64,000 nt of DNA from Actinomycetales bacterium (GCA_051960855.1 JBQCDV010000038.1:2625-66624); one strand, 5' to 3'; shown: positions 10,715 to 39,917, counted from the first letter of the stretch. Translations and numbers: made by a program. The notes: generated from the sequence alone by a model not told the origin.

Positions 10715-10730
10715 CACCGAGCAGCGCGTA

Positions 10731-14992: not shown

Positions 14993-15113
14993 GGGCCGCC
15001 TCCTCCTCGGGCACTTGTGACGCCTACCTATCGGCAGCGACAGCAGCGCCTGGAGGACAAGTCAGTGCCATCGCGGTCAGCCAAGCCGCAAGGCGGTCGT
15101 GGGAGCTGTTCGC

Positions 15114-16154
15114 TCAGGAGCCGGAGGCAGGTGTGCGGTCGTGCTTGAGGTCGTCGAAAAGCCGCAGCGCGGCCTGACGGTCCCACTTCACAGTCGATCC
15201 CACAGGCGTGTGGTAGTCGGGGTCCGCCACCGGGACAGTCGTGCGGACACCGGAGGACCCCGCAACGGCCCGCATGGCCAGCGCCCAGCGCGCGACATCG
15301 AGGGGACCGCTCGCGTCGTCGACGGTCAGGGAGTCGCCGGCCGCGAGCGCGAGGCTGCCGAGCCGCCACGGCAGCAGGAGGGTGGTGGGGCTCGTGGCCT
15401 TGTCGCTGATCGCGCCCAGCACCTCACGCTGCCGCTCGACCCGGCCGAGGTCCCCGCGGGGATCGGAGTACCGCGCGCGGACATACGCCAGAGCTGTGGG
15501 ACCGGTGACCGTCTGGCAGCCGGCTTGGATGTGCAGCCCGGCCTTCGTGTCGTTCATCGCCCGTTTCGGGCACACCTGCACGCCGCCGACCGCGTCAACC
15601 ATGTCGACGAAGCCCAGAAAACCGATCTGCACGTAGTGGTCGATCCGCAGCCCCGTCACATTCTCGACGGTGGTGACCAGGAGAGGCGCGCCCCCGAAGG
15701 CGAACGCCGCGTTGAGCTTGTTGCGTCCGTGCCCCGGTATCGGCACGTAGGAGTCGCGGGGCAGGCTGACCAGCACCGAGGGTCCGCCGTTGTCCGGCAC
15801 GTGCAGCAGCAGGATCGTGTCGGTGCGCTGACCCTCCGCTCGCCCGGTATGCAGCTCTCGCCGTTGCTGCGGAGTCAGCTGCTCGCGGCCGTCGGAGCCC
15901 ACCATCAGGTAGTTCGTCCCCGCAGCGGCGGCGGGGCGGTCTCCCGAGCTGAAGGCGGTCACCTTGTCGACGCGCAGCCATGCCAGCGCCGCGACGACCA
16001 GCAGCGCCACGAGCACCACGGCGATGACGGCCACCAGCCATCGGACCCACCGGAACCGCCGGCGCCGGCGGGGTAGCGGCTGCGCCTCGCGAGGGTTGGG
16101 CGGCGGCGGGTCTGATCGGTAGATGACGTGGGTCGGCTCGTCGGGGCCGCTCAC
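15114..16154 (-). CDS. LCP family (LytR-CpsA-Psr) cell-wall glycopolymer ligase
   Basis: A single N-terminal TM segment, then 'NYLMVGSDGRE ... RTDTILLLHVP ... SLPRDSYVPIPGHGRNKLNAAFAFGG', the LCP catalytic core. Confidence 0.85.
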   Translation of the reverse strand: MSGPDEPTHVIYRSDPPPPNPREAQPLPRRRRRFRWVRWLVAVIAVVLVALLVVAALAWLRVDKVTAFSSGDRPAAAAGTNYLMVGSDGREQLTPQQRRELHTGRAEGQRTDTILLLHVPDNGGPSVLVSLPRDSYVPIPGHGRNKLNAAFAFGGAPLLVTTVENVTGLRIDHYVQIGFLGFVDMVDAVGGVQVCPKRAMNDTKAGLHIQAGCQTVTGPTALAYVRARYSDPRGDLGRVERQREVLGAISDKATSPTTLLLPWRLGSLALAAGDSLTVDDASGPLDVARWALAMRAVAGSSGVRTTVPVADPDYHTPVGSTVKWDRQAALRLFDDLKHDRTPASGS

Positions 16155-16188
16155 GCCGTCACCCCCGAGCCGGAACGCCGCTGCGTCG

Positions 16189-17664
16189 CTACCCGACGCT
16201 GCACGACTTCTCCTCGGCGGCGGTGTGGGTCTCGATCGTCCCGCCCGCGGTGCTCGTGCCGCTGGCGGACGGGGTCGGTGCTGCCGACGCCACGGTCACG
16301 GGCTTGAGGCCGGAGTAGTCGGAGCCGAGCAGCACCTGGAAGGTGCCCCCGAGACCGTCGACCTGAGTGAAGGTCGCGTCGGGCAGGGCTGCCTGGAGGG
16401 TCTTGACCGAACGGCTCCAGCGAGGGTCGTAACGGACCTCAGTGCTGGTCATCCCCGTCGTGTCCGCGTTGCCGGGGGAGCCGACGATGCGGAAGCCGGC
16501 CGCGCGGAAGTCGTCGGCGGCGCGCGTGGCGAGACCGGAGGTGCCAGCGGCGTTGAGCAGCTTCACCGAGATCTCCGACGGTGGCACCTCGGCGACGACG
16601 GCCGGGGTGGCCGACGGTGAGGGAGTCGGCGTCGGGGAGTTGATCGGCCGGTCGTTCTCGATGTCGCTGAAGAGCCGCTGGGAGAGCGTCTCGTCCCACA
16701 GCACCGCCGAGCCGACGCCGCCGGGACGGTAGTCCTCGTTGGCGATCGGGACGGTGGCGAACACGATTCGGTTGGCGGACACGTTGCGCAGCTGCTGAGC
16801 GAGGTCGACAACGTCCGAGCGGGACAGACCGGGGTCGGCGTCGACGGCGTCGAGGGCGGCGTTGACGAAGGAGAGCAGCTTGACGGGGTTGAAGAGGACG
16901 CCGGCGCTCGTGGCCTCCTGGAACATCGCCCCGATGAAGGCCTGCTGGCGGCGCATGCGACCGATGTCGCCCTTGCCGTCGAAGTAGCGGGCGCGGACGT
17001 ACTTCAGCGCCTCGATGCCGTCCATGTGCTGCAGGCCGGGCTGCAGGTCGAGGCCGGCCTTCTGGTCCTTGATGGGCTGGCGGACGCACACGTTGACGCC
17101 GTTCAGAGCGTCGACCATGTCGACGAAGCCGTTGAAGTTGACCTCGACGTAGTGGTCGATGCGGACGTTGGTGTTCTGCTCGACGGTGCGGACCAACAGG
17201 GGGGCGCCGCCGAAGGCGAACGCGGCGTTGAGCTTGTTGTGGGTGACGCCCACCTGCTCGCCGTTCGACTCGTGCGGAGGGATCGTCACGTAGCTGTCGC
17301 GCGGCAGGCTGACGACGATGGCGCGGTCACGGTCCGCGCTGATGTGCAGCAGCAGCATCGTGTCGGAGCGCTGCCCCGAGCCGTTGTCGGCTGTGGCGCG
17401 GCCGACATGCAGCTTCTTGATCTGCTGGGGCGTCAGGCCCTCGCGGTTGTCCGAGCCAACGATCAGGTAGGTGACCGCGTCACCGGTCGCGGGGTTCTTG
17501 GTCGGCCGGTCCTGCTCGTTGAGCCCCTTGAAGACGTCGTTGCGGTGGATGCGGCCGGAGGAGTAGGTCAGAGCGGCCCAGCCGCCGCCGCTGACGACGA
17601 GCACGAGCGCGCTCACGATCGTCGCGACGAAGGCCAGGGCTCGTCGCATCGCGTGATCGCGCAT
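16189..17664 (-). CDS. LCP family protein with C-terminal LytR_C-like domain
   Basis: A second LCP core ('TYLIVGSDNRE ... RSDTMLLLHI ... SLPRDSYVTIPPH ... KLNAAFAFGGAPLL') with a ~150-aa C-terminal extension ('KLLNAAGTSGLATRAADDFRAAGFRIV'). Paralogue of the adjacent gene. Confidence 0.85.
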   Translation of the reverse strand: MRDHAMRRALAFVATIVSALVLVVSGGGWAALTYSSGRIHRNDVFKGLNEQDRPTKNPATGDAVTYLIVGSDNREGLTPQQIKKLHVGRATADNGSGQRSDTMLLLHISADRDRAIVVSLPRDSYVTIPPHESNGEQVGVTHNKLNAAFAFGGAPLLVRTVEQNTNVRIDHYVEVNFNGFVDMVDALNGVNVCVRQPIKDQKAGLDLQPGLQHMDGIEALKYVRARYFDGKGDIGRMRRQQAFIGAMFQEATSAGVLFNPVKLLSFVNAALDAVDADPGLSRSDVVDLAQQLRNVSANRIVFATVPIANEDYRPGGVGSAVLWDETLSQRLFSDIENDRPINSPTPTPSPSATPAVVAEVPPSEISVKLLNAAGTSGLATRAADDFRAAGFRIVGSPGNADTTGMTSTEVRYDPRWSRSVKTLQAALPDATFTQVDGLGGTFQVLLGSDYSGLKPVTVASAAPTPSASGTSTAGGTIETHTAAEEKSCSVG

Positions 17665-17835: not shown

Positions 17836-19077
17836 TTACATCCCGTTGGTCTTCGCCGGCTTGCTCGCCGACTCACGTGCCGAGCCGCCCGTCGGCTCCG
17901 TCACCGGCTCGCTCGCCGCCGGCTGCTCGCTCACGGGCAGCGGGGGGCGCCTCCGGTCAGCCCTGTCATCCGCGCGCCGGCGCGCCCACTCGCGCATGCG
18001 TCGCTCGCACGGCTGCTCGACGGCGTAGTAGAGAGCAGCCGCTGCCGCCACCGCCAGGACTCCAACGAGGATGAGGAGGCCGATGTTCCGGTTGCCCTCG
18101 GGCTGCGGGCCGATGGTGAGCTGGAAGCAGCGGATCACGGTCTGGTGGACGAGGTAGAAGCAGTAGCTCCAGGCGCCGAGCAGCACGAGGGGCCGCCACC
18201 GGAAGATGCTGCGGCGCCCGTCGATATCCAGGAGCGCGGCGGCCCCGATGGCGCCGGCGAAGAGCAGCGGCGTGACGAGCCGGTCGGCGACCTGCAGGCC
18301 GAAGTCGAGCGCCGGCAGCTGGGCCCGGATGGCGAAGCGCACCGGGATCTGGACGATCACCCAGAGCAGGATCAGCGCGATCCACCCCCACAGCCACCCC
18401 GGCGGCCGCCACCCCCGCCGCATGACCGTCGCGAGCGTCATGCCGAGCACGAACTGCCAGAGGGTGAAGAGCGGAGTCCGGAACGCCCAGGTCTGGTCCT
18501 TGCCCGTGAGGAGGGCGAGGACGACCGCTGACACCGCAACGACCACTACCGCCAGCCCGGCCAGCAGTCCCAGCAGCTGCCGGTTGGTGCGGCGCTGCAG
18601 CGGGGCGACGAGGAAGGGGAACATGGCGTAGAAGAAGGCCTCGCACGACAGCGTCCACGACACCGGGTTGCCGGGAAAGGTCGGTTGGAGCCGGGGCACC
18701 CACGCCTGCACGAGGAAGACCGAGAGCAGCGCGGTCCACGTCAGGGGCTGTCCGGAGGCGAAGTAGAAGACCGGAACGGCCAGCACGATGCCGGCCAGGT
18801 GCGAGGGGTAGATGCGCGCGACGCGTCGCCAGTAGAACTGGGACCTCTCACCGCCCTCGCGCCACGACCACACCAGCACGAAGCCGGACAGGATGAAGAA
18901 GAACGTCACGCCTGCCGCGCCGTACTCGGTCTCCGGGTAGATCAGCGGGACCTTCGCGAGGCCGGTGGTCGGAGACGTGCCGTGGAAGTGGTGCACGAAC
19001 ACCGCGAGCGCGGCGAACCACCGCAGCCCCGTCAGGGAGTCGAGCCGCGGGGTAGCAGGTCGGGCGCCGGAAGCCAT
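17836..19077 (-). CDS. Acyltransferase family 3 membrane protein (O-acyltransferase)
   Basis: 'LDSLTGLRWFAALAVFVHHF' is an acyltransferase_3 N-terminus, followed by about 10 TM helices. Start set at the internal ATG (MASGARP) rather than the 19224 ORF start. Confidence 0.75.
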   Translation of the reverse strand: MASGARPATPRLDSLTGLRWFAALAVFVHHFHGTSPTTGLAKVPLIYPETEYGAAGVTFFFILSGFVLVWSWREGGERSQFYWRRVARIYPSHLAGIVLAVPVFYFASGQPLTWTALLSVFLVQAWVPRLQPTFPGNPVSWTLSCEAFFYAMFPFLVAPLQRRTNRQLLGLLAGLAVVVVAVSAVVLALLTGKDQTWAFRTPLFTLWQFVLGMTLATVMRRGWRPPGWLWGWIALILLWVIVQIPVRFAIRAQLPALDFGLQVADRLVTPLLFAGAIGAAALLDIDGRRSIFRWRPLVLLGAWSYCFYLVHQTVIRCFQLTIGPQPEGNRNIGLLILVGVLAVAAAAALYYAVEQPCERRMREWARRRADDRADRRRPPLPVSEQPAASEPVTEPTGGSARESASKPAKTNGM

Positions 19078-19103
19078 CGGGCCGCGACGATACCCCGCGA
19101 TAC

Positions 19104-20220
19104 CCTCCGCGGCATGGCTGCCAGACGCCCGATGGACGACGACAGCCCGGCGGCGGGAGGTGACGACACCGTCGTCTGGCCTCCGGTCTCGGTGATCATG
19201 CCGGTGCTCGAGGAGGAGACCCACCTCGCCGAGGCGGTCGCCCGCGTGCTCGCCCAGGACTACCCGGGCGAGCTTGAGGTGGTGCTCGCGGTGGGACCGT
19301 CACGCGATCGCACCGAGGCGATCGCCGCCGAGCTCGCTGCCGCGGACGAGCGGGTCCGCGTCGTGCCCAACCCGACCGGCGCGACACCCTCGGGCCTGAA
19401 CGCCGCCCTGCGCGCCAGCCGCCACAGCATCGTCGTGCGCGTGGACGGGCACGGTCTCCTCTCTGACGGCTACATCCGCTCGGCTGTCCGGCTGCTGGAG
19501 GACACGGGGGCTGCCAATGTCGGAGGGACGATGGCGGCGGAGGGGACCGCGCCGCTCCAGCAAGCCGTGGCCTGTGCGATGCGCAGCCCGCTCGGGGTGG
19601 GCGGCGCCAAGTTTCACGTCGGCGGCGCCGAGGGCCCGGCCGAGAGCGTGTACCTCGGAGTCTTCCGCCGTGAGGTGCTCGAGGAGCTCGGCGGCTTCGA
19701 CGAGCGCTTTCGCCGCGCGCAGGACTGGGAGCTGAACTACCGCATCCGCACCAGCGGGCGCACGATCTGGTACTCCCCGACGCTGTCGGTGACCTACCGT
19801 CCCCGCGCCACCTGGCGGGCCCTCGCTCGGCAGTTCTTCCACACCGGACAGTGGCGGCGCCACGTCGTGCGCACCTATCCCGACACTGCTTCGCCGCGCT
19901 ACCTCGCGGCCCCGGTCGCTGTCGCTGGCATCGCCCTCGGGACCGCGATGGGGGTGACGGCCCAGGTGACAGCAGACCGCCACCCGGGCTGGGCCCGCCT
20001 GCTGCGGCTGGGTTGGGCAGCGCCCGCGGGGTATGGCGCGCTCGTGACCCTCGGAGGCTTTGCGATCACCCGGCAGCAACCGTGGCGCGTCCGCTCGCTG
20101 ATGCCGGCGGTGCTGGCCACCATGCACCTCACGTGGGGCGCGGGCTTCCTGGTGCCCGAACGGCAGAGCCATCCCGAACGGCAGAGCCATCCCGAACGGC
20201 AGAGCGACGGTGACGCATGA
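19104..20220 (+). CDS. Glycosyltransferase family 2
   Basis: 'VSVIMPVLEEETHLAEAVARVLAQDYPGELEVVLAV' GT-A N-terminus with DxD-type motifs. Diverges from the acyltransferase across a 26-bp spacer. C-terminus carries an 18-bp tandem repeat (ERQSHP x3). Confidence 0.8.
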
Positions 20221-23200
20221 GCGCCGACATCACGGTCGTTGTCATCGTCTACAACGACGCTGCTCGACTGCCCGCCGCCGTCGACTCCGTGGTGGCTCAG
20301 CAGCTTCCCACTGGTCGGACCCTCGAGGTCATCGTCGTCGATGACGCCTCGACCGACGGCTCCGGAGACGTCGCCCGCCACCTCGCGCAGACGCGCAGCA
20401 CGCCGAGCTGCGTCGTTCGGGCTCTGACCCTCCCCACCAACAGCGGCGGCTGCAGCCGGCCGCGCAACGTCGGGATCGACGCCGCGCAGGGCCGCTACGT
20501 GATGTTTCTCGACAGTGACGACGTGCTGCCCCCGGGTGCCTGCGCCGCGCTGCTCGCCGCCGCCGAGCGGGAAGCCGCGCCGGTCGCGGCCGGACTGTGC
20601 ATCCGACGGCATCTGGCGACGGGGCGTGACGAGCGCTGGTACCGCTACCTCTACGAGGCCGACGACGTCATCACCGACCTCGCGGACCGGCCCGACCAGC
20701 TCTACGACACGCTGTCGACCAACAAGCTGTACCTGCGTAGCTACCTCGACGAGCACGGGCTGCGCTTCCCGGAGGGCCTGCACTACGAGGACCTGCTCTT
20801 CTCGACCAGCGCCTATGTGACAGCCGCGCGCATCGCCATCACGGCCGCCCCCGTCTACATCTGGCACATCGCCGACGAGAGCGCGCCGGCCTCGATCAGC
20901 CACCGCCGCTTCGACCTGCGCAACTGGGCCGACCGGATGGAGGTGCACCGGCGTTCGGACGCGTACCTGCGGGAGGCGGGCGTCGCGGCGCACCTGCAGG
21001 GGGCCAAGGACCGCAAGTTCCTCAACCACGACCTCAAGCTCTTCCTCGAGGACGTCCTGACCTACCCCCCGGAACAGCGGACCCGGCTGCTCGACCTCGT
21101 CGCCGACTACCTGACAGAGCCGCGACCCGATGGCTTGCCGCCGGTGCTGGCCTCGGCCCCCGACGCGCATCGGCCCTCGCGCCTGGCGGCCTTCGTCGTC
21201 GCGGCCCGCGACCTTCCCCGGGTGCTGCAGGCGGCGAGGTTCTATGTCACCGGCCAGGTCGACTTCCCGGTCGTCGCGGGCGAGGACGACGGGGTGCGGC
21301 ACCTGCGCTGGGAGGCGCGGGAGCTGGCCGGCGCCGACCTCGACCTGTCGGACACCGGCTGGCTGAGCGCTCCGCTCTCCCTCGTCCCGATCGGCGCGGT
21401 CGTCACACACGTTGCGCTCGAGGAGCCCAGCGGCGAGCTGCGCCTCACCGGCCGGCTGTGGGACGTCGGTGGTCGCCTGTGGGGTGGGGACCCCGAGCTG
21501 CTCCTCGTGGTGCGCGGTGCGCTGGGGCGACTGCGGTGGTCTCGCCCGCTGTCCGCCGTCAAGCCGGCCTCACCGGCGGAGCCGTGGGGCTTCGACGTCC
21601 CCGTGGACCTGGCCGCCGTCGCGCAGGCGCTGCGACCGGTCGACCTTGCGCTGGGCTCAGGGCCCGTCCTGCGTATCGAGGCGACGCTGCAGGGCGAGAC
21701 CCGGCGCGTGCGGCTCGCGCTCGACCTCGCCGACCGCGACGTGCTCCCACTCGACCTCGGGACGCTCGGAACCCGCTGGGCCCCGCTGCTGGGACGCAGC
21801 TGGGGACTGACCGAGCAGCGGGGTGTCCTGACCCTGCAGTTCCCATCCGCCGCTGCCGCGGTCACGTCGACGGGTGCGCTCGTCCGGCGTGCCAGAAGCT
21901 CCGGCTACGCCGGGCGCCTGCGCCGTGCCGCCCGTGTCGGCGCGGCCATCGCCCGCCGCCGTCCGCCCGCCGACCTGGTCTTCCGGCTCGCGCAGCGGCT
22001 GCCGGTGCGTCCGGGCACCGCGCTGTTCGAGAGCCACCTGGGGCGGCAGTACAGCGACAGCCCGAAGTACGTCTACGAGGCACTCGTCCGCTCCGGGGCC
22101 CCGTGGCAGGTGACCTGGTCCTACGCCGACACCACCGCCGGCTTCCCCGCGTCGGCGAGGAGAGTGCGGCGCGGCAGCTGGCGCTGGGCGCTGGCGCTGG
22201 CCACCAGCGAGGTGTGGGTCGACAACCAGGGCTGGCCCCGATGGGTGACTAAGCGGCCCGAGCAGCGCTACCTGCAGACCTGGCACGGCACGCCCCTGAA
22301 GACGATGGGCTTCGACGAGCCGACCTTCAAGCGCGGCAGCGGCGCCGACCGAGCGCGGCTGCGCCGGATGGCCGAGCGCTGGGATTGGTTTGTGGCGCCG
22401 TCGCGCTACACCGAGGAGCGGCTCACCTCGGCGTTCGGCTACACGGGGGAGGTCCTCCGCGTCGGCTACCCGCGCAACGACCGGCTCGTCCGCCACACGC
22501 CGGGCGACGTCCGCGCGGTCCGGCACCGCTTAGGGCTGCCGGACGGCAAGCGCGTCGTGCTCTACGCGCCCACGTTCCGTGACGCCGCGCGGAAGGCCGG
22601 GACGCCGTTCTCGCTGCCTCTTGACCCTGCCGAGTTCGCCCGGCGCTTCCCGGACGCGATCCTGCTGGTGCGCACCCACTACCTCGACGAGTGGAGCGCG
22701 CCCGAGGGGCTGCACGACAGCGTCCGCGACGTCAGCGGCCATCACGACGTGACCGACCTGATGCTCGCCGCAGACGTCCTCGTTACTGACTACTCGTCGG
22801 TCATGTTCGACTGGGTGACGACGGGACGACCGGTCGTCTTCTTTCCCTACGACTACGACGACTACGTCCGCGACCAGCGAGGCACCTACTTCGACCTGCT
22901 TGCCGAAGCCCCCGGCCCGGTCGCGATGACGGCACCCGAGCTGCTCGACCTGCTGGCGCTGCCCGACGCCGAGCTACAGACCCGCTTCGCCGCCCGCTAC
23001 CGCGACTTCGTCGACCGGTACACCGACTACGAGACCGGGCATGCCAGCGAGTCCGCGGTCGAGGCCGTCTTCGGCGTGCCCGCGCCGGTGGCGGACGAGC
23101 CCCCCGCCGAACGGCGTCGCGTCGTGATCGTCGCCAACTCCATCGACACCCTCGGCGGTGTGCAGCGCGTCGGGCATGCCCTCGCCGCCGGCTTCGCCGA

Positions 23201-24254
23201 GCGCGGTCACGACGTCGAGCTGGTCGGGATCCGGCACGACGAGCCGCACCACGACTTCGCCGTTCGTGGATATCGCGCGTGGACGCTCTACGACGAGGGC
23301 TTCGAGCCGGGTCGACGCCTCCCCTCCCGCCTCAACCGGTTCGACCTGCCGCGTCGCCGGCAGCGCACGCGGATGCGGCGCGAGGCAGTCCGCCGGCTGT
23401 CCGGGGCCATCACCCGCGAGCCGGGCACGATCGTCATCTGCATGCAGGTGTGGGCGATGCGGTGGCTCAGCGGCTGCGACCTCAGCCGCGTGCGGCTGGT
23501 GGTCCAGTCGCACGAGGACTACTCGGCGTCGAAGGGGCTGACGCCGGCGTCGGAGGGATCGCTGCGCTACGCGCGCATGGACCGCTACTACCGCGGGGCA
23601 GACCGGCTCCTCACGCTCACAGAGGAGGATGCAGCGGCCTTTCGGGCCGACGGGTTCCAGCACGTCGAGGCGATGCCCAACCCGCTGTCGATGGAGGTCG
23701 GGCCGCCTGCCGCGCTCACCGCGCCAGTGGTCCTCACCGTCGGCCGCTACGACGCCCAGAAGAACCAGGCCGCCCTCATCGACGCCTGGGCGCTGCTCGC
23801 GGACCGGCACCCCGGGTGGCGGTTGCGACTCGTCGGTGCCGGCCCGTTGGAGGCCGAACTGCGCGCGCAGGTGACCCGGCTGGGGCTCGACGGCTGCGTC
23901 GAGGTCGCAGGGCCGAGCAACGACGTGCGCGCCGAACTGCAGGCAGCGGCTGTCTTCGCGCTGCCCTCCGACTTCGAGGGCCTGCCCGTCGTCGTTGCCG
24001 AGGCCATGGCCAATGGCCTGCCCGTGGTTGCCTTCGACTGCGGCCCCGGGCTGCGCGAGATGGTGCAGGACGGCGAGACCGGGCTGCTGGTCGACAAGAA
24101 CGACGTTGCCGGGCTGGCCGGCGCGCTCGAACGGCTCATGTCCGACCTCGAACTGCGCCGGCGGCTGGGGGCCGCTGGCCAGGTCGCCGTCCAGCGGTAT
24201 GACCCGGCGGTCGTCTTCGAGCGCTGGGAGCGGCTCTTCGACGAGCTCGGCTAG
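20217..24254 (+). CDS. Trifunctional fusion: GT2 glycosyltransferase, then CDP-glycerol glycerophosphotransferase (TagB/TagF family), then GT4 (group 1) glycosyltransferase
   Basis: N-terminal 'VVVIVYNDAARLP ... VVDDASTDGS ... FLDSDDVLPPG' is GT2. Middle 'LQTWHGTPLKTMG ... VLYAPTFRD ... [11 protein letters not shown] ... VVFFPYDYDDY' is TagF-like. C-terminal 'VVIVANSIDTLGGVQRV ... EGLPVVVAEAMANGLPVVAFD' is GT4. ATG overlaps the upstream GT2 stop (ATGA). Uninterrupted 1345-codon frame. Confidence 0.8.
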   Translation: MSADITVVVIVYNDAARLPAAVDSVVAQQLPTGRTLEVIVVDDASTDGSGDVARHLAQTRSTPSCVVRALTLPTNSGGCSRPRNVGIDAAQGRYVMFLDSDDVLPPGACAALLAAAEREAAPVAAGLCIRRHLATGRDERWYRYLYEADDVITDLADRPDQLYDTLSTNKLYLRSYLDEHGLRFPEGLHYEDLLFSTSAYVTAARIAITAAPVYIWHIADESAPASISHRRFDLRNWADRMEVHRRSDAYLREAGVAAHLQGAKDRKFLNHDLKLFLEDVLTYPPEQRTRLLDLVADYLTEPRPDGLPPVLASAPDAHRPSRLAAFVVAARDLPRVLQAARFYVTGQVDFPVVAGEDDGVRHLRWEARELAGADLDLSDTGWLSAPLSLVPIGAVVTHVALEEPSGELRLTGRLWDVGGRLWGGDPELLLVVRGALGRLRWSRPLSAVKPASPAEPWGFDVPVDLAAVAQALRPVDLALGSGPVLRIEATLQGETRRVRLALDLADRDVLPLDLGTLGTRWAPLLGRSWGLTEQRGVLTLQFPSAAAAVTSTGALVRRARSSGYAGRLRRAARVGAAIARRRPPADLVFRLAQRLPVRPGTALFESHLGRQYSDSPKYVYEALVRSGAPWQVTWSYADTTAGFPASARRVRRGSWRWALALATSEVWVDNQGWPRWVTKRPEQRYLQTWHGTPLKTMGFDEPTFKRGSGADRARLRRMAERWDWFVAPSRYTEERLTSAFGYTGEVLRVGYPRNDRLVRHTPGDVRAVRHRLGLPDGKRVVLYAPTFRDAARKAGTPFSLPLDPAEFARRFPDAILLVRTHYLDEWSAPEGLHDSVRDVSGHHDVTDLMLAADVLVTDYSSVMFDWVTTGRPVVFFPYDYDDYVRDQRGTYFDLLAEAPGPVAMTAPELLDLLALPDAELQTRFAARYRDFVDRYTDYETGHASESAVEAVFGVPAPVADEPPAERRRVVIVANSIDTLGGVQRVGHALAAGFAERGHDVELVGIRHDEPHHDFAVRGYRAWTLYDEGFEPGRRLPSRLNRFDLPRRRQRTRMRREAVRRLSGAITREPGTIVICMQVWAMRWLSGCDLSRVRLVVQSHEDYSASKGLTPASEGSLRYARMDRYYRGADRLLTLTEEDAAAFRADGFQHVEAMPNPLSMEVGPPAALTAPVVLTVGRYDAQKNQAALIDAWALLADRHPGWRLRLVGAGPLEAELRAQVTRLGLDGCVEVAGPSNDVRAELQAAAVFALPSDFEGLPVVVAEAMANGLPVVAFDCGPGLREMVQDGETGLLVDKNDVAGLAGALERLMSDLELRRRLGAAGQVAVQRYDPAVVFERWERLFDELG

Positions 24255-25528
24255 CCGGAGTGGGCGGCGTTCGTGGTCTCGTCGCCGGTGTTCGCGTCGC
24301 TGCGTGAGGTGCTGCCCACACTGCTACCTGCAGTGCTACCGGGACCGCTCTCGCTGGGGGAGGCGGTCGACGCCGTTCCTGGCCCGGGCTGCCCGTCGCC
24401 GGAGAGCAGCGCCATCGCTTTGCGCGACTGGGAGTAGGCCCGGTAGACCGCGCGCGTCAGGCCGAGACGACGACCGCCCTTGCGTGGCTGCTGCGGGTCG
24501 AAGTCGTCGTTGTCGACGGCCAGCGGCGAGTCCTCGCGGGTGAGCAGGGCCACGATCTCCTCGCGCACGATGCGGCGCAGGTCGTCCTCGGTTGCCATGT
24601 CGAACCATTCCTCGGATGTCGGGTCGGCGCCGCTCGGGGGCAGGAGCGGGTAGAGCGGGATCGTCGTGCGGGTGGTGCCCTTCGGGTCGTAGCGCGCCTC
24701 GTAGGCATCCACGACGTCGTCGGCGGGGCCGTCCATCAGCATCCGGCCGTCCTCCAGCCAGATCGCGCGGTCGCAGGTCTCGCGGACCACGGCTAGCGAG
24801 TGGCTCACGAGGAACACGGTGCCGGCCTCCTCGCGCAACTCGGCGATGCGGCGTTCGCTCTTCTGCCGGAACTCCGCATCGCCCGTCGCCAGCGCCTCGT
24901 CGATGAGCAGCACGTCGTGGGACTGTGCGGCTGCGATCGCGAACCGCAGGCGTGCTCCCATCCCGGAGGAGTAGGTGCGCATGGGCAACGAGATGAAGTC
25001 TCCGATGCCGGCGAAGTCGACGATGTCCTCGTAGGAATCCTTGACCTGCTGGGGCGTCATGCCCATCGCGAGACAGCCGAGCTCGACGTTGCGCTCCCCG
25101 CTCAGGTCGTTCATGAGGGCCGCGTTGACGCCGAGCAGGCTCGCCTTGCCCCGCGTCCAGACGGTCCCGCGCTCGGGCGGCAGGAGGCCGGCGATCGCCC
25201 GTAGCAGCGTCGACTTGCCCGACCCGTTACGGCCGATGAGCCCGATGGCCTCACCCTCGTACGCGGTGAAGCTGACGCCCTTGACGGCGTGGACCTCGCG
25301 CAGGGTGGGGGCATTCTGCCGACGCAGGATGCGGCGGAACGCGTTGGCGGCGTTGCCCTTGCCCGTCCCACTGCCGTAGACGCGGTAGACGACATGGACG
25401 TCGTCGACCACCACCGTCGGAGGCACGTCGAAGGGCCACGGGGTGGAGGACTCCACCGGTGCCGAGGGTGTGTCGCTGGCGCCCGGTTCAGCGAACCGGA
25501 AGCGGGTGTCCGTCTCAGCCGCGGCCAT
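24251..25528 (-). CDS. ABC transporter ATP-binding protein, polysaccharide/teichoic-acid export type (TagH/Wzt-like), with a ~150-aa low-complexity C-terminal tail
   Basis: Walker A 'GRNGSGKSTL', signature 'YSSGMGARLRFA' and Walker B 'LLIDEALATGD'. Stop overlaps the convergent 1345-aa gene. Start overlaps the permease stop. Confidence 0.85.
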   Translation of the reverse strand: MAAAETDTRFRFAEPGASDTPSAPVESSTPWPFDVPPTVVVDDVHVVYRVYGSGTGKGNAANAFRRILRRQNAPTLREVHAVKGVSFTAYEGEAIGLIGRNGSGKSTLLRAIAGLLPPERGTVWTRGKASLLGVNAALMNDLSGERNVELGCLAMGMTPQQVKDSYEDIVDFAGIGDFISLPMRTYSSGMGARLRFAIAAAQSHDVLLIDEALATGDAEFRQKSERRIAELREEAGTVFLVSHSLAVVRETCDRAIWLEDGRMLMDGPADDVVDAYEARYDPKGTTRTTIPLYPLLPPSGADPTSEEWFDMATEDDLRRIVREEIVALLTREDSPLAVDNDDFDPQQPRKGGRRLGLTRAVYRAYSQSRKAMALLSGDGQPGPGTASTASPSESGPGSTAGSSVGSTSRSDANTGDETTNAAHSG

Positions 25529-26340
25529 AGGTCTCCTCCCCTCGGTAGAAGACGGTGAAGCCGACGAGCAGGCCGACGACCGCCCAGACGATCGCGTACA
25601 GCCAGGTGTGCGGCCCGGCGTTGTGCTCCCGCAGCAGGGCGTCGCGGATGAGTTCGATGTAGACGGAGCCCGGGTTGGCTGCGAGTAGGAACTTGATGAG
25701 GTGGGGTGCGTCCTTGGCCTTGTCCTGGATCGAGTAGAAGACGCCCGAGAGGTAGAGCCAGGTGCGCAGGATGAACGGGAGCAGCTGGCTGACGTCCGGG
25801 ATGTTCGCGCCGATGCGTGCCATCACGAAGCTGGCGCCGACGTTGAACATCGTCTGCAGCAGCAGGGCGGGAAACACGAGGAGCCAGGCGAACGTCAGCG
25901 GCTCGCCGGTCAGCAGCACGATGATCGCCAGCACCACCATCGAGACCGCCAACTGCTGCAGCTCGATGATGACCAGCGCCAGCGGCAGGGTGGCCCGCGG
26001 GAAGTGCATTGCCCGGATGAAGCCGAGGTTGTCGATGATGGCGCGGGCACCGCTCTGGACCGAACGCTGCGTGTAGGTGAAGACGAAGATGCCGCAGACG
26101 AGGTAGGCGATGTAGTTGGGAACGCCGGACTTCGTCTTCAGCAGGATGCCGAACACGAGGTAGTAGACCGCGGCGTTGAGCAGCGGCGTGAGGACCTGCC
26201 AGACCTGCCCGAGGCGGGCGGTGCTGTACACGGCGAGGTTGCGCGCACTGGCGAAGGAGACGATGAAGTGCCGGCGACCCCAGAGCTCGGCGAGGTACTG
26301 CCCGAGCGGAGGGCGCTCCGCCGACTGCTGCAGGCCCATC
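25515..26340 (-). CDS. ABC-2 type transporter permease (TagG/Wzm-like)
   Basis: Six TM helices with an ABC-2 pattern ('GRRHFIVSFASARNLAVYSTARLGQVWQVLTPLLN'). Start chosen at the internal ATG (MGLQQ). The ORF extends to 26708 with a non-membrane, low-complexity N-terminus that is probably not translated. Confidence 0.7.
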
Positions 26341-26633
26341 CGCTCCGCGAACGCGCCGAGGGACTCGCCCGAGCGCTGGGCAAAGTGCGAGGAGGCCTCG
26401 CGCGGGTCGTTGTCAGGAGCCGGTGAGCTTCGGCCCGAGTCGTCGCCCGGGCCCCCACTGCCGCCGGTCCTGGCCACCGCTGTCGTCACGGGGGCCAAGC
26501 CTAGGCGAGCGGCCCGCCTGTGCCTGCTCACCCCGGCGCCTCGTCGTCCACAGACGGCAATCCGTTGCTCTTTCCTCCACAGCGCACTGGCATCCCACCT
26601 GCTCAGGGGGCCGTCGCGCCTAACTTCGAACCT

Positions 26634-28214
26634 ATGTACGAGTCCTCGAATGACCCTCCTATCCCTGAGGGAGACGGCTGTGGGAGTGGCGGCTTCCGGC
26701 GAGCGCATGCCGCTCCCGAGGGCGGCGCCTTCACCTTCAGCGGTCGCAGCCCTGGGGCGGAGGTGGTGGCGGACCTGGAGCGCCTGGAGCTACCGCGATG
26801 CTCGGACGCGGAGGTCGTGGAGGTCATCAAGGCGTGGCAAGCGGTGGAGTCGCGCGCGAAGGCACGACTGTGGGAGGCGGTGACGGAGTTCATGCGGCGT
26901 CGCCCCCGAGAGGGACGAGGCGAGGACCCCGGTGCGCCGTGGGACCGGGACGTATCGGGATTCGCCACGGCAGAGGTCGCGGCTGCCTTGAACCTGCCGT
27001 TGTCCGCCGCTGACAACCTCGCGGCGGAAGCCGCCGAGGTCCAGCAGCAGTACCCGGCGCTGGTCGAGTCCTTGGGCGAGGGCCGCGTCAACCCCTCCCG
27101 CTTCTACACGGTCGTCCGCGGGCTGCGCGGGGTGGACGAGAAGGTCGCCCAGGCGGTGCTGGAGGCGGTGCTTCCCGATGCCGAGGGCCCGGTGTCCAAC
27201 GGGACCCTGCGCAGCCGCCTGCGGCGTGCGGTGATGCGCGCCGACCCGGAGGCCGCCGTTCGCCGCTGCGAGGAGGCCGCCCGCCGGGACACCGCCCTGG
27301 TCCTCCACCCGAGAGAGGACGCGATGGCCAGCCTCGTGGCGACCGCCCCCGCGGTGGACCTGGTCGCCGTGCACACGGCGGTCGACGCCTTCGCGAAAAC
27401 GCTGGCCGACGCCGGCGCTCCAGGGGCGCTGGCCAAGCTTCGCGTGCGCTCCCTTCAGGAGCTCGTCCTCACCCACCCCGCCATCACGGGCCTGGGTCCA
27501 TGGCAGCGCGCTCTCGGACTGCCCGTCACCAGTGACACCTCCCGCACCCGTGGAGGGGCGCCTGCCGGACGGGAGCGGGGCCAAGCGACTGGCGGGGTCG
27601 GCTCGACAGCGGACGACGCCGTGGGAGGCGTCGACGACGAAGGGCGGCTCCAGCTGGGGCTGCCGTTGAGTGAGATCCCCACCTTCGGCTGCGGATCCGC
27701 CGGCAGGTTCTCCTCACTGACGATGGTGGCCATTCCATATGACGTGCTCCTGGGCGTCAGCGAGGCGCCTGGCGAGCTCGTGGGCTACGGGCCGCTTCCG
27801 GCTCCGGTGGCCCGCGCTATCGCCGGCGATCAGACCGGTACCTGGCAGAGACTCGTGACCGATCCGCTCAGCGGCTCCGTGCAGGACTTCGGGACGACGC
27901 GCTATCGGCCTCCGGCCAAACTGGCCGGCCACGTCGTCACCCGAGACTGGACATGTCGAGCTCCCGGCTGCTCTGCCCCTGCCGTCGTCTGCGACCTCGA
28001 TCACGCGACCCCGTACCGCCATGACGGTACGGGTGGGGCCACCTGCGCGGCCAACCTCATCCCGCTGTGCCGTCGGCACCACCGGTGCAAGACGTTCACG
28101 GGCTGGACGGTGCGGCGTGAGCCCGACGGCAGAGTCGTCTGGCGCACACCCACGGGGCACGAGTACGTGACCTATCCCGACGGGCCGGTCCAGGACTGGG
28201 CGGCGCAGGACTGA
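26634..28214 (+). CDS. DUF222 / HNH endonuclease-domain protein (13E12-repeat family)
   Basis: C-terminal HNH motif 'CDLDHATPYRHDGTGGATCAANLIPLCRRHHRCK' and a DUF222-like N-terminal region. Start set at ATG 26634 (MYESSND). The ORF is open from 26520. Confidence 0.75.
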   Translation: MYESSNDPPIPEGDGCGSGGFRRAHAAPEGGAFTFSGRSPGAEVVADLERLELPRCSDAEVVEVIKAWQAVESRAKARLWEAVTEFMRRRPREGRGEDPGAPWDRDVSGFATAEVAAALNLPLSAADNLAAEAAEVQQQYPALVESLGEGRVNPSRFYTVVRGLRGVDEKVAQAVLEAVLPDAEGPVSNGTLRSRLRRAVMRADPEAAVRRCEEAARRDTALVLHPREDAMASLVATAPAVDLVAVHTAVDAFAKTLADAGAPGALAKLRVRSLQELVLTHPAITGLGPWQRALGLPVTSDTSRTRGGAPAGRERGQATGGVGSTADDAVGGVDDEGRLQLGLPLSEIPTFGCGSAGRFSSLTMVAIPYDVLLGVSEAPGELVGYGPLPAPVARAIAGDQTGTWQRLVTDPLSGSVQDFGTTRYRPPAKLAGHVVTRDWTCRAPGCSAPAVVCDLDHATPYRHDGTGGATCAANLIPLCRRHHRCKTFTGWTVRREPDGRVVWRTPTGHEYVTYPDGPVQDWAAQD

Positions 28215-28277
28215 GCGGTCCAGGACTGGGCGGCGCAGGACTGAGCGGCGCAGGACTGGGCGGCGCAGGAGCCCGCT
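28188..28277. repeat. 30-bp tandem direct repeat x3 (GTCCAGGACTGGGCGGCGCAGGACTGAGCG; third copy degenerate) spanning the HNH gene stop and the convergent GT2 stop
   Basis: Direct reading. Copy 1 encodes the last 8 codons plus TGA of the HNH gene. Copies 2 and 3 repeat the same codons plus stop downstream. Confidence 0.8.
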
Positions 28278-31874: not shown

Positions 31875-31887
31875 GATGCGGATTCTC

Positions 31888-33737: not shown

Positions 33738-35441
33738 GTGTCAGCAGGGCAGTCGGGGCGGTCTCGCAAGGGTTGGCGGGGCTGGCCTGCCATCGTAGGG
33801 GCCGTGAGCGGACCGCCCGACGTCCCTGCCGCTGTCCCGGCTGCTGTCTCTGCCGCTGTCCCAGTCGGCCCCCCAGCTGACGACGTCGTCAGCGTCGTCG
33901 TCAGCGTTGTCGTCATCGTCTACAACGACGCCGCGCGGCTCCCAGCCGCCGTCGCCTCCGCGCTCGCCCAGCAGCTGCCCCGGCCAGCCGCGGAGGCGGA
34001 CCACGCGGCAGCGCGGCCGGTTCTCGAGGTCGTCGTCGTCGACGACGCGTCGACCGACGCCACACCGCAGGTGTGCGCGGAGCTGGCCGCCGACCCGCGC
34101 GTGAGGGTCCTGCGTCGCAGTGCCAACAGCGGCGGCTGCTCGGCCCCCCGCAACGACGGCATGGAAGCCGCGCGCGGTCGCTGGGTGATGTTCCTCGACA
34201 GCGACGATGTCCTGCCGCCGGGCGCTGTCGCAGCACTGGTGGGCGCCGGCGAAGCCAGCCACGCCGACGTCGCCAGCGGTCTGTGCCAGCGCGTGTACCT
34301 CGACAGTGGCGCGGTCCGGCCGTGGTGCCCTGAGCTCTACTCGCGCCCTCGCATCCTTGCCGGCATCGACGACGAGCCCACGCTCTGGCGCGACAGCCTC
34401 AGCACCAACAAGGCCTACCGCCGCACCTTCCTCGAGCATCACCGGCTGCGGTTCCCGCTCGGCATGCACTTCGAGGACCTGGTCTTCTCCGCTCGCGTCT
34501 ACCTCGCCGCCTCGCGAATCGCCCTCGTCCCGGATCCTGTGTACCGCTGGCTGGTTGCGGGGGAGGACGTCCCTGCCGTCAGCATCTCGATGCGCCGGCA
34601 CTCCCTCGACAGCCTGAGGGATCGCGTCCGGGCGCACGAGCTGATCGACGAGGCGCTGGCGACCGCTCGCCCGGCTGACGCCCGGTTGCGGGCGGCCAAG
34701 GACGCGAAGTTCGTCGAGTCCGACCTGCGGCTCTACCTCGACGACCTGTGGCGCCGCGACGATGACTACCGGTCCGGCTTCCTCGAGCTGCTCCAGCCGT
34801 ACCTGCGCAGCGTGCCCGACTCGTCGTGGCGGCTGATGACGCCGCTGCCGCGGGAGGCGGCCGCCGCCGTGCGGGCGGGGGACCTCGACGCCGCACAGGA
34901 CGTCGTCGAGCGCCTCCGTCGCGCTGACCGTCGCTCCCTCACCTGTCTGGCCCGTCTCGACACGATCGACGAACGCCGCCCCGTCGCGTCCGTCGTGCTC
35001 GTCGGTGGCCCTGGTGAGGGCCCGGAGCGCCTGAGTGTCGACCTGGTGCCGGTTGTGGCTGGGCTGGCCGTCCCGCGGCGCGTATGGCTGCGGCGGCCGG
35101 TGACGGCGCGGGCGGCTGACACCGAGCGGCGCCGCTGGGAGCTCGAGCTCGTGCCTCCGCCGGTGCTGCCGTTGCTGCCGGTGTCGTGGCGGCTCGCCGT
35201 CGCCGCACCGCCGCTGGTCGCGCCGCAGACCGTTGCCCCGCCGCGCCTCTGGCGTGAGCCGCCGACGGTGGGTCGCTGGACCTGGGACGTCAGCCGCGGC
35301 GGCGACGTTCAGCTGTCGGACGCGAGGTCGCGACGGTGGGAGCGCCGCGTCGACGCGTGGCGGCGCCGCTGGCGCTGGACGTCGACGGGTCGACTCGTGC
35401 TGGCGGGACGCAGCCGCCTCGGTCGTAGGGTGGCGCCATGA
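33738..35441 (+). CDS. Glycosyltransferase family 2 (paralogue of the GT2 domain of the 1345-aa fusion)
   Basis: '[24 protein letters not shown] ... VVVDDASTDATP ... FLDSDDVLPPGAVAAL' is near-identical at the nucleotide level to the 20217..24254 N-terminus. An alternative GTG start is at 33804. Confidence 0.75.
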   Translation: MSAGQSGRSRKGWRGWPAIVGAVSGPPDVPAAVPAAVSAAVPVGPPADDVVSVVVSVVVIVYNDAARLPAAVASALAQQLPRPAAEADHAAARPVLEVVVVDDASTDATPQVCAELAADPRVRVLRRSANSGGCSAPRNDGMEAARGRWVMFLDSDDVLPPGAVAALVGAGEASHADVASGLCQRVYLDSGAVRPWCPELYSRPRILAGIDDEPTLWRDSLSTNKAYRRTFLEHHRLRFPLGMHFEDLVFSARVYLAASRIALVPDPVYRWLVAGEDVPAVSISMRRHSLDSLRDRVRAHELIDEALATARPADARLRAAKDAKFVESDLRLYLDDLWRRDDDYRSGFLELLQPYLRSVPDSSWRLMTPLPREAAAAVRAGDLDAAQDVVERLRRADRRSLTCLARLDTIDERRPVASVVLVGGPGEGPERLSVDLVPVVAGLAVPRRVWLRRPVTARAADTERRRWELELVPPPVLPLLPVSWRLAVAAPPLVAPQTVAPPRLWREPPTVGRWTWDVSRGGDVQLSDARSRRWERRVDAWRRRWRWTSTGRLVLAGRSRLGRRVAP

Positions 35442-38558: not shown

Positions 38559-39917
38559 ATGGCGACGATCCCAGCGCGTGAGTCGGGGCTTCGGGTCGTC
38601 GTGGAGTCGATGCTCGATCAGGCTGAAGAAGTGTGTGTATACCTCAACGGATATGAGGAGGTCCCTGACTGGCTCGCTGCGGCCCCCCGGGTTGTTGCGC
38701 GACTTGGCGAGGATCTTGGCGACCGAGGCAAGTTCGCGTTTGTTGATGGCTTCGATGGGGTCTACCTGACGGTCGACGACGACATCGCCTACCCGCCCGA
38801 CTATGTCGCGGCCACGGTGTCCGGACTCCAGCGGTACCCCGGCGCCGTGGTGGGCTGGCACGGGAGCCTCCTCGATCCGGACATCACCGACTACTACGAC
38901 CACAGCAAACGCCACGTGTTCAATCACGGCAGGGCGTGCCTGCGCGATGAGGTCGTCCACGTGCTCGGGACGGGTGCACTCGGCTTCGATACTCGTGCGC
39001 TGAGCGTCTCCCTCCGCGACTTCGAGGTCCCTAACACCGCTGACCTCTACTTTGCGCGGCTGTGTCAACGACAGGCCGTGCCCCAAGTGGTTCTCGCTCA
39101 CCCTCCGGGGTGGGCGCCGCCGATCCCTTTTCCCCGTGAGGCCACGATCTGGGGTGCCTCTGTAGACAACAACGCCTCGAGGTTCGACACGCGCACCGCA
39201 GCGGCCGCGCTTCTGCCCGAGCTGGCTGCCATGCGCCTGTCGACCCTGGCTACGGCCGGTCCGCTGGCCGTCTTGCGGGTCCGCGACGCTGAGCGAGCCG
39301 TCGGAGTGGAGGCAGCCCTTCGGACGCTCCTGATGCCCTTCCGGATCGCTGTCGCGACCATTGCTGACGAGGCTGCCCACAGTGCTGGCGCTGCCCCGAT
39401 GACTGCCACCGACTCGGGCGCTGCAGAAAACCGTCCGTCCGGCTGGACGGTCTCAGCGGCCACCGACGGAGGGACGCTCGTGTTGACCGGCGACCACGGA
39501 AGGGTGCGCTTTCCGTGGCCGCTGCTGCTGGGCCCCGACACCGCCGCGGTGGACCCGAGCGGCGTGGTCCTCGCGGCAGAACCAGAGCGGCATGCCTCGC
39601 TTACAAGGCGGCTCGCCGAAGAGGAACTGCACCATGTGACCGTGGTCAACCCCCTATCGCCGCTCGACCGTCATCCCGGGCAACTGCTGCTGTGGGCCAT
39701 CCCTCGACTCGCCGGCGCGCCTGACGATGGCACTTGCTTGGCTGCAGCGGCGTTCGAGCCGGTCGTCGAAGCCGACCTCGTTGCGACGGTGCGCCGGCTT
39801 CTTGACCGCCCCGACGTGGCGGCGGCCATGCTGGACGCACAGCTGGCGGCAACTGGCCGGCGGGCGCGAACAAAATGCGGGTCTGCGCTCTGGAACTGGC
39901 TGCAGGAGCAGGCCTAG
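38559..39917 (+). CDS. Putative GT-A fold glycosyltransferase (DXD)
   Basis: 'MATIPARESGLRVVVESMLDQAEEVCVYLNGY ... YLTVDDDIAYPPDYV' resembles nucleotide-diphospho-sugar transferases. Start set at the internal ATG. Visibly lower GC than the window average. Confidence 0.45.
   Translation: MATIPARESGLRVVVESMLDQAEEVCVYLNGYEEVPDWLAAAPRVVARLGEDLGDRGKFAFVDGFDGVYLTVDDDIAYPPDYVAATVSGLQRYPGAVVGWHGSLLDPDITDYYDHSKRHVFNHGRACLRDEVVHVLGTGALGFDTRALSVSLRDFEVPNTADLYFARLCQRQAVPQVVLAHPPGWAPPIPFPREATIWGASVDNNASRFDTRTAAAALLPELAAMRLSTLATAGPLAVLRVRDAERAVGVEAALRTLLMPFRIAVATIADEAAHSAGAAPMTATDSGAAENRPSGWTVSAATDGGTLVLTGDHGRVRFPWPLLLGPDTAAVDPSGVVLAAEPERHASLTRRLAEEELHHVTVVNPLSPLDRHPGQLLLWAIPRLAGAPDDGTCLAAAAFEPVVEADLVATVRRLLDRPDVAAAMLDAQLAATGRRARTKCGSALWNWLQEQA

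Follow-up and report, generated by a model that had tools for sequence, protein, structure and literature searches.

In a 64,000-nucleotide stretch of DNA from an Actinomycetales bacterium (GCA_051960855.1 JBQCDV010000038.1:2625-66624; the window, with positions counted from its first letter), one open reading frame (ORF) joins a family-2 glycosyltransferase (GT2), a TagF-type CDP-glycerol glycerophosphotransferase and a family-4 glycosyltransferase (GT4). Judging from the sequence, we read this gene as encoding a genuine single-chain synthase of the wall-teichoic-acid type with three active sites, formed by the fusion of an operon pair across a stop/start overlap, and we put the probability of this reading at roughly 0.72. 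The gene and its parts, with lengths in amino acids (aa), are as follows.

20217..24254, plus strand: fused ORF, 1345 aa, in the order GT2, middle region, TagF, 18-aa linker, GT4 (ORF list, Pfam)
20217..21251, plus strand: GT-A (GT2) catalytic domain and helical region, TarS/TarP/RmlT-like, residues 1-345 (Pfam PF00535 at 6-180, AlphaFold model, Foldseek)
21270..21839, plus strand: beta-sandwich middle region, residues 352-541 (secondary structure of the AlphaFold model)
21978..23072, plus strand: TagF-type CDP-glycerol glycerophosphotransferase domain, residues 588-952 (Pfam PF04464, E 4e-98)
23073..23126, plus strand: linker GVPAPVADEPPAERRRVV, residues 953-970, 18 aa (codon listing)
23127..24251, plus strand: GT-B retaining glycosyltransferase (GT4), residues 971-1345 (Pfam PF13439, PF00534, PF13692)

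One uninterrupted frame carries three modules

From ATG to TGA the frame runs without interruption through 1345 codons' worth of protein, as the original prediction had proposed, and both the ORF list and Pfam bear out the GT2-TagF-GT4 order. In Pfam, Glycos_transf_2 covers residues 6-180, Glyphos_transf 588-952, and Glyco_transf_4 together with Glycos_transf_1 980-1321; the PF04464 score is 329 bits against a gathering cut-off of 22. The window comes from a metagenome-assembled contig, which lends some weight to the idea that the fusion is false, produced where a stop or a frameshift between two domains was overlooked, but we consider the chance of this negligible. Seven members make up the 90% cluster of the fusion: four come from NCBI metagenome-assembled genomes (MAGs) whose label reads Actinomycetes or Actinomycetales bacterium, three come from independent Logan assemblies, and all are 1345 aa long. 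One of them (MGN6686353.1) is identical to the protein of the window and the other six carry 1-11 substitutions. The 101,222-bp contig of MGN6686353.1 also encodes the split, GalE and LytR-CpsA-Psr (LCP) proteins of the window, which therefore belongs to that MAG. Because the window and these seven entries, eight sequences in all, share the same length with 0-11 substitutions and no indels, the fusion is genuine and not an assembly artefact. A stop or frameshift at the junctions, the weak point named in the original prediction, is present in none of the eight.

The codons tell the same story. G+C content at third codon positions (GC3) is 0.80-0.98 in frame, with every 50-codon block at least 0.80, both junctions included, and the alternative frame across the fusion junction holds a stop. 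A sister MAG contig (L001, 15.3 kb) has DNA identities of 98.6% and 97.7% to the window over 17870-33244. Between the window and L001 alleles, the fusion has 20 synonymous and 11 non-synonymous differences, a ratio of non-synonymous to synonymous rates (dN/dS) of ~0.2, and synonymous changes also dominate in the linker and GT4 part (10 of 13 changed codons, with 3 non-synonymous).

Fused and split arrangements across actinomycetes

The original prediction also noted that the same modules recur in the same order on the minus strand of the window, as a split pair with a GTGA overlap and a lower GC content. Pfam, direct reading of the sequence and GC counts all agree with this.

41065..43899, minus strand: split copy A, GT2-TagF, 944 aa, canonical two-domain form (Pfam, sequence read)
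39914..41068, minus strand: split copy B, GT4, 384 aa (Pfam, sequence read)

The GTGA, read directly in the sequence, overlaps the start of split B with the stop of split A, and a second GTGA overlaps the GTG start of split A with the stop of an upstream coenzyme A (CoA)-transferase gene. Split A exactly matches MGN6686367.1, annotated as 'bifunctional glycosyltransferase/CDP-glycerol:glycerophosphate glycerophosphotransferase', and split B exactly matches MGN6686366.1; both start codons agree with the deposited annotation. GC per kb is 0.65-0.69 over the split pair against 0.71-0.75 (window overall about 72%), and GC3 is 0.79-0.81 against 0.91.

To place both arrangements in related genomes, we used a profile-based scan with one genome per species, which gave 80 loci; two further loci, L002 and L003, bring the set to 82. 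The 80 are mostly from Streptomyces, with others from Kitasatospora, Embleya, Actinomadura, Actinoallomurus, Planotetraspora, Actinoplanes, Streptosporangium, Planobispora, Actinospica and Streptacidiphilus. In 78 of the 82 loci a GT2-TagF ORF is directly followed by a separate GT4 ORF, with an overlap of 4 nt (ATGA, GTGA or TTGA) in 66 and of 8 nt in 6. A fused GT2-TagF-GT4 gene was found in 0 of the 82. The comparison of fused and split forms that the original prediction had called for therefore comes down heavily on the side of the split form.

Wider searches gave the same picture. With the fusion as query against 5.8 billion proteins, the matches under 99% identity were only two-domain GT2-TagF proteins, 39-43% identical and 813-979 aa long (nearly all 926-979). 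In an exhaustive phmmer search of 1.84 billion cluster representatives with fusion residues 560-1345, the only high-identity TagF+GT4 match was the fusion's own cluster, and the other TagF-GT4 fusions among the best 150 matches (P0166, P0157, P0132 and P0189) are all distant. No other database protein above about 35% identity has the one-ORF form, nor does any of the 80 species-level loci. The fused form is thus confined to one cluster, all members of which are at least 99% identical to the window. Aligned with 21 GT2-TagF members, the fusion is 39-44% identical over about 950 aa and collinear, including the middle region that has no Pfam match. The closest relatives of its GT4 part are 47-54% identical, all stand-alone and about 380-410 aa long; where examined (L002, L003, L084), they lie directly 3' of a GT2-TagF gene with a 4-nt overlap. 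Judged by these comparisons, the canonical arrangement is a split pair with translational coupling, of which the minus-strand pair of the window is an ordinary example, and the fused gene is a lineage-restricted derivative.

The linker suggests how the derivative arose. It fills the gap between F952, the residue at which conservation in TagF ends, and IVAN (971), the motif at which it resumes in GT4. In split pairs the median C-terminal tail is 6 aa and the median N-terminal head is 10 aa, with a median sum of 18.5 aa; the 18-aa linker matches these summed tails and looks like a simple read-through join, with no sign in the sequence that an extra linker domain was gained. The ancestor would have been the conserved actinomycete operon pair of GT2-TagF and GT4 with its NTGA stop/start overlap. 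In NTGA the GT4 frame is offset by one base, and a small frame-restoring indel just upstream (a 1-nt insertion or equivalent) would remove the stop, so that translation would then run from the TagF domain straight into GT4. We infer this overlap-indel origin from the sequences, and the event itself would be mundane, an ordinary case of read-through between adjacent, overlapping genes of a polysaccharide locus. Two GTG codons in the linker (23076 and 23088) are in frame and close to the expected place of the ancestral GT4 start. From them, translation could begin internally and yield GT4 as a product of its own.

Catalytic motifs, folds and family assignment

All three modules look catalytically competent, with their motifs intact. 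The GT2 module has its DxD motif as D99-S-D101-D102 (DSDD99-102) and keeps the conserved D192. The TagF domain aligns with Staphylococcus epidermidis TagF (PDB 3l7i) at E 2e-71 with the QTWHGTPLK motif aligned, and 3l7j has N at the position of the aligned histidine. H690 (in QTWHGTPLK) and H821 (in RTHYL) are family-invariant and correspond in the alignment to H444 and H584, the catalytic histidine pair of S. epidermidis TagF (PMC5974469). In the GT4 module the R1177/K1182 pair and the glutamates E1254..E1262 are retained, corresponding to the donor-phosphate-binding R/K pair and the EX7E motif as defined for GT-B enzymes (PMC11666461). Where 78 split pairs show conservation of 95% or more, the fusion keeps 128/142 positions in GT2-TagF and 43/49 in GT4; split copy A keeps 138/142 in GT2-TagF.

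An AlphaFold (AF2) model of residues 1-600, built from a 30-sequence alignment, has a predicted local distance difference test score (pLDDT) of 83 and a predicted template-modelling score (pTM) of 0.81, with pLDDT >90 over residues 1-220. It consists of a GT-A domain, a helical region (227-345), a beta-sandwich (352-541) and low-confidence helices (546-594) that lead into TagF. The middle region at 352-541 has no Pfam match, a sequence search of the PDB with it gave none either, and it is the least conserved part of the family, at 14-26% identity to homologues. For the whole model, the best PDB folds in Foldseek are full-length TarS, followed by Listeria monocytogenes RmlT, then TarS 1-349 and TarP. 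TarS 1-349 (5tzi) gives a TMt of 0.80 with a root-mean-square deviation (rmsd) of 4.0 over 372 columns, and TarP a TMt of 0.76-0.83. Full-length TarS (5tz8) and RmlT align over 556-620 columns with a TM of about 0.45, and for full-length TarS over 570 columns the TM is 0.48-0.52 and the rmsd 13.6; in the comparison with the C-terminal oligomerisation domain of TarS, the domain arrangement may differ or may be poorly predicted in the model. No TPR domain was matched by Pfam in the fusion, and the region between GT2 and TagF is modelled as helices and beta-sandwich.

PDB sequence matches of the GT4 domain are to SdgB-type GT4 proteins, PimA and TarM, and more weakly to the CgaT domain of Cps3D (E 1.5e-9); the TagF domain matches Cps3D at E 2e-37. 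Against the NCBIfam equivalogs the whole fusion stays below the cut-offs for TarF (NF041712, 226.5 vs 550), TarL (NF041713, 81.9 vs 1000) and TarB (NF041711, 52.3 vs 500). Because these curated cut-offs are not reached, the protein should not be named TarF, TarL or TarB, and as it has no TPR it should not be classed with the capsule polymerases either.

Proposed function and alternatives

From the sequence, the most likely product is a glycosylated glycerol-phosphate wall teichoic acid. Going by the families, the TagF domain would transfer glycerol-phosphate from CDP-glycerol onto a lipid-linked chain at the cytoplasmic face of the membrane, and the inverting GT-A at the N-terminus, which is TarS/RmlT-like, and the retaining GT-B at the C-terminus would add sugars from nucleoside-diphosphate sugars to the glycerol-phosphate units. 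The product would then leave through the adjacent ABC transporter and be ligated to peptidoglycan by nearby LytR-CpsA-Psr (LCP) enzymes. That both glycosyltransferases decorate a poly(glycerol-phosphate) chain in cis falls a little short of even odds. It is possible, and we say so tentatively, that at least one sugar lies in the chain, giving a poly(glycosylglycerol phosphate); some other role, for example in a short oligomer or a linkage unit, is unlikely. Branch sugars, as added by TarS or TarM, are slightly favoured over backbone sugars because of the fold matches and the TagF precedent.

A natural fusion indicates, as far as sequence can, that the three enzymes work as one unit. This Rosetta-stone argument was central to the original prediction, and the coupled split pair seen across the comparison loci strengthens it. 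As fusion is classical evidence of joint action, the products of the split pair are predicted to form a physical complex elsewhere. Capsule polymerases offer a parallel, in that their GT-A/TagF and TagF/GT-B domains act together while being independent of each other's folding (PMC5974469; PMC11666461). Little is known of how Gram-positive bacteria synthesize glycosyl-polyol-phosphate teichoic acids (Litschko et al. 2018, PMC5974469). The GT2-TagF and GT4 pair occurs in hundreds of Streptomyces and related genomes, and the fusion flags it as a conserved, apparently uncharacterised enzyme pair. A 147-kDa chain with all three activities would also be handy in reconstitution work in vitro and as an enzyme for producing teichoic-acid-like antigens.

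The alternative closest to this proposal is that the three domains alternate to build a backbone repeat of sugar(s) and glycerol-phosphate, which would make the protein a Gram-positive counterpart of the TagF-like capsule polymerases. The three active sites might take turns, adding beta-sugar, glycerol-phosphate and alpha-sugar in a repeat that yields poly(glycosylglycerol phosphate), or 'type II' wall teichoic acid. We find this doubtful. In its favour, every GT-A/TagF or TagF/GT-B enzyme with known biochemistry is a polymerase that alternates its transfers within the chain (PMC5974469; Cps3D structure, PMC11666461). Cps3D is matched through both TagF and GT4, with the same TagF-then-GT4 order and a short linker, and the near-universal translational coupling together with the fusion points to 1:1 cooperation. 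Set against this, the GT2 half is nearest in fold to TarS, TarP and RmlT, which decorate backbones and do not build them, and the GT4 domain is nearer to generic GT4 enzymes than to CgaT. S. epidermidis TagF shares the N-terminal GT2-like domain, yet its product is a plain poly(glycerol-phosphate) backbone. The fusion also lacks the TPR domain, which is present in most TagF-like capsule polymerases and is needed for elongation in Cps3D and Cps7D (PMC5974469; PMC11666461). Were the domains to take turns after all, the actinomycete pair would represent the long-sought equivalent, in Gram-positive bacteria, of the Gram-negative TagF-like capsule polymerases, which might even have evolved from it, and the natural fusion would be a ready single-chain tool for making such polymers in vitro.

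It is improbable, in our view, that the fusion is merely an accident, a recent neutral or mildly deleterious indel after which one module (most likely GT4 or GT2) may be decaying while the split pair does the essential job. The restriction of the fused form to one cluster of near-identical sequences and its absence from the 80 species-level genomes fit such an accident, as do the presence of a functional split copy in the same genome and the more frequent departures of the fusion from the consensus. However, every catalytic motif is intact, no fusion sequence has an indel or stop, and synonymous changes prevail, also in the GT4 part. The gene lineage is about 40% identical to all else, so it has long been kept as coding sequence; it is also coupled through an operon ATGA to an upstream GT2 gene and has an exporter adjacent. 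The single-chain synthase therefore remains our preferred reading, with several observations counting against it. The window is part of a metagenome-assembled genome. The dN/dS of the fusion is based on just 31 differences, and the fused form is limited to very close strains, so the fusion could be recent. The fusion strays further from the family consensus than the split copy does (90% vs 97% of conserved positions), and its TarF and TarL equivalog scores are far under the cut-offs. No TagD-type cytidylyltransferase, TagO or TagA was identified within the window, and we found no biochemical characterisation of the fusion or of any member of an actinomycete GT2-TagF and GT4 pair.

The fused and split sets are old relatives

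Besides the two sets, the window has a third GT2, which the original prediction had taken for a paralogue with long near-identical DNA stretches.

33738..35441, plus strand: stand-alone TarS-like GT2, 567 aa as listed (Pfam)

The gene is indeed there, with 49% identity to the fusion N-terminus over 300 aa by BLASTP, but near-identity of the DNA did not hold up. In the first of the stretches cited for it, 65/90 positions are identical. The second lies a few bases from where it was placed; the DNA there does contain the motif, which codes for FLDSDDVLPPGA (DxD). Exact matching between the fusion and the third GT2 nowhere extends beyond 20 nt (20241/33912), and between the fusion and the split pair not beyond 15 nt. 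Codon-aligned nucleotide identity is 62% between the fusion GT2 and the third GT2, 53% to split A and 54% to split B, and the best 120-nt windows reach 81%, 73% and 67%, respectively. The similar patches of DNA encode the catalytic motifs VVIVYNDA and FLDSDD. At identical residues, identical codons reach 52-61%, figures that fit saturated synonymous sites under strong codon bias. At the protein level, BLASTP aligns fusion residues 5-952 with split A at 39% over 967 aa, collinear including the non-Pfam middle region, and the fusion C-terminus with split B at 43% over 380 aa.

The original prediction went on to suggest that the two sets and the third GT2 arose by duplication, fusion and fission within the locus and still recombine through internal repeats, thereby varying the polymer. 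The crowding of three GT2, two TagF and two GT4 modules inside 24 kb speaks for this idea, but we regard it as highly improbable. When 79 homologues are ranked by identity to the fusion, the split copy comes 41st for GT2-TagF and 18th for GT4; ranked from the split side, the fusion comes 68th and 67th. In bootstrapped neighbour-joining trees, fusion and split modules are sisters in 1 (GT2), 4 (TagF) and 0 (GT4) of 60 replicates. With the sets only about 40% identical, these ranks and trees led us to reject recent in-locus duplication. The third GT2 is 49-52% identical to the fusion GT2, while the fusion GT2 compared with the GT2 modules of GT2-TagF proteins in other genera gives a median of 49% and a maximum of 54% (maximum 51% for stand-alone GT2s there); as GT2 modules from other genomes resemble the fusion to the same degree, the third GT2 has no special closeness to it.

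Gene conversion between the paralogues fared no better. Exact-match searches, codon-aligned sliding windows and per-window ranks revealed no conversion tract between the fusion and its paralogues, there being no tract >83% over 60 nt and no window of outlier identity between the fusion and the split copy, and we rejected this candidate as well; with synonymous sites that look saturated, the internal repeats are poor candidates for recombination substrates. One comparison does point the other way. The fusion TagF (21942-23081) ranks 3 of 79 towards the split TagF (41065-42200), while GT2 and the middle region rank 73-76. We read this oddity as a shared donor-side constraint or as lineage effects, and not as gene conversion. 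The sequence comparisons make the two sets paralogues or xenologues of long standing, not the outcome of a recent duplication, and the split set probably makes a second, different polymer.

The sister MAG has incomplete copies of the split genes that fall into the same 90% clusters, so both sets coexist stably. A segment of lower GC (0.65-0.69) and lower GC3 at 38400-44000 spans the split pair and a 495-aa ORF, and may be of foreign origin. Counter to this, partial copies of the pair occur in the sister MAG, and the segment adjoins CoA-transferase genes as in the relatives L002 and L003. GT2-only ORFs are common near the pair in general: in 46 fetched loci there are 51 of them, 38 of which are on the opposite strand.

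Gene neighbourhood

The genes on either side of the fusion fit a locus for wall-polymer synthesis.

18685..20220, plus strand: upstream GT2 gene, likely true start near 19114 (368 aa in the sister MAG annotation; Pfam, L001 gene call)
24251..26708, minus strand: ATP-binding cassette (ABC) exporter pair, ATPase 24251..25528 and ABC-2 permease 25515..26708 (Pfam PF00005, PF01061)
15114..17664, minus strand: two LCP genes (Pfam PF03816)

At 20217-20220 the fusion ATG overlaps the stop of the upstream GT2 gene in an ATGA, and a fourth glycosyltransferase module is therefore predicted to be translationally coupled to the three-module protein. The ABC pair, convergent with the fusion, is presumed by analogy to be a TagGH-like polymer exporter (PMC10269677), and the LCP genes are likewise presumed to encode the ligases that attach the polymer to peptidoglycan (PMC7831098). 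The locus also has an acyltransferase, an epimerase, further GT-A-like genes and SpoIID/CWB2.

A block on the minus strand at 29184-33708 comprises genes for a CDP-alcohol phosphatidyltransferase, an iron-dependent alcohol dehydrogenase (Fe-ADH), a nucleoside-triphosphate (NTP) transferase and a CDP-alcohol phosphatidyltransferase fused to DUF5941. The Fe-ADH is glycerol-1-phosphate-dehydrogenase-like (NF002022, 247 bits, under the cut-off of 413). The block adjoins the GT2-TagF and GT4 genes of the window, and its enzymes could supply the CDP-glycerol donor by a different route, perhaps in the sn-1 configuration. Parts of it recur by the pair in two distant relatives, in L002 (961-6296; NTP transferase, Fe-ADH, DUF5941 fusion) and in L003 (3309-6150; two CDP-alcohol transferases). 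As a constant companion of the pair it was ruled out, since glycerol-1-phosphate-dehydrogenase, NTP-transferase and CDP-alcohol-transferase genes accompany the pair within 6 kb in 4-7 of 82 loci.

Several other genes stand out. A plus-strand ORF with DUF222, an HNH-endonuclease-associated family, lies at 26520-28214 between the ABC exporter and a GT2-like gene; it is also found in the sister MAG (L001 8786-10375), and the fetched flanks of the 82 loci hold no homologue. Two proteins of 664 aa (36390-38384, minus strand) and 495 aa (38430-39917, plus strand), whose genes sit between the epimerase and the split GT4, have no significant Pfam or NCBIfam match and almost no homologues in the comparison loci. 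The sole match of the 664-aa protein is to GT2 and is weak (E 5.6e-4), and both proteins carry the DDD/DDDD motifs typical of GT-A glycosyltransferases. The flanks at 1-15000 and 45500-64000 resemble a conserved actinobacterial cell-envelope region, with genes for purK/purE, UDP-glucose dehydrogenase, a PAS-GGDEF-EAL protein, SpoIID/CWB2, a ManC-like nucleotidyltransferase, CofE/CofD (F420), a 1180-aa GT2 protein, phosphomannomutase and phosphomannose isomerase.

Comparison with known systems

The nearest relatives of the fusion are the actinomycete pairs of GT2-TagF (~930-960 aa) and GT4. They are collinear with it (39-44% identity in GT2-TagF, 42-54% in GT4), share its conserved residues and sit in cell-wall loci of the same kind; the minus-strand pair of the window belongs to them as a regular member. 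Unlike in the fusion, GT4 is a separate gene with an NTGA overlap, and the fusion is the most divergent member sampled. In Streptomyces coelicolor, a wall teichoic acid cluster of this broad type is located around SCO2997 (PMC3937824).

TagF of S. epidermidis and Bacillus subtilis (3L7I) resembles the fusion in its TagF domain, including both catalytic histidine motifs. The deposited S. epidermidis sequence also has an N-terminal GT2-like domain, in which residues 4-102 align and the motif reads FLDADD. Because the 3L7I sequence begins in this GT2-like manner, GT2-TagF is the classical TagF architecture. In contrast to the fusion, these enzymes have no C-terminal GT4 and a shorter middle region.

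The Gram-negative capsule polymerases Cps3D and Cps7D (TPR-TagF-GT-B) and Cps1B, CslB and Cps12B (GT-A-TagF) carry a glycosyltransferase C- or N-terminal of TagF in the same order as the fusion, with the R/K pair and EX7E in GT-B and DxD in GT-A. The fusion differs from them in having both types of glycosyltransferase on one chain and no TPR, and the similarity is modest (E 2e-37 overall). Its context is also different, a high-GC actinomycete wall locus with TagGH-like, LCP and SpoIID/CWB2 genes and not a Gram-negative group 2 kps capsule locus. TarS, TarP and RmlT (GT-A) and TarM/TagE-type enzymes (GT-B) are relatives of the fusion's glycosyltransferases in fold or sequence, at only 14-23% identity. 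These enzymes are free-standing, whereas the modules of the fusion are covalently joined to a polymerase-type domain. TarM carries an extra N-terminal domain, which the fusion GT4 lacks; no Pfam match beyond the GT4 families was found there.

A clostridial protein, P0166 (1301 aa), has TagF followed by GT4 in a single alignment over fusion residues 592-1339, and Pfam confirms both domains. Coming from a Firmicute, at 28% identity and with no GT2 Pfam match in its N-terminal 558 aa, it is evidently an independent fusion. Other database proteins of 1500-1690 aa (P0121-P0128, P0131, P0134 and P0135) combine GT2 with two TagF domains or have two TagF domains alone. As read from these sequences, the multi-domain repertoire of the TagF family is wider than the two capsule-polymerase architectures. 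For GT-A, TagF and GT-B on one chain, we found neither a description nor another database example at meaningful identity. The fusion is thus a new architecture of a known enzyme family, and the GT2-TagF family itself is annotated and widespread.

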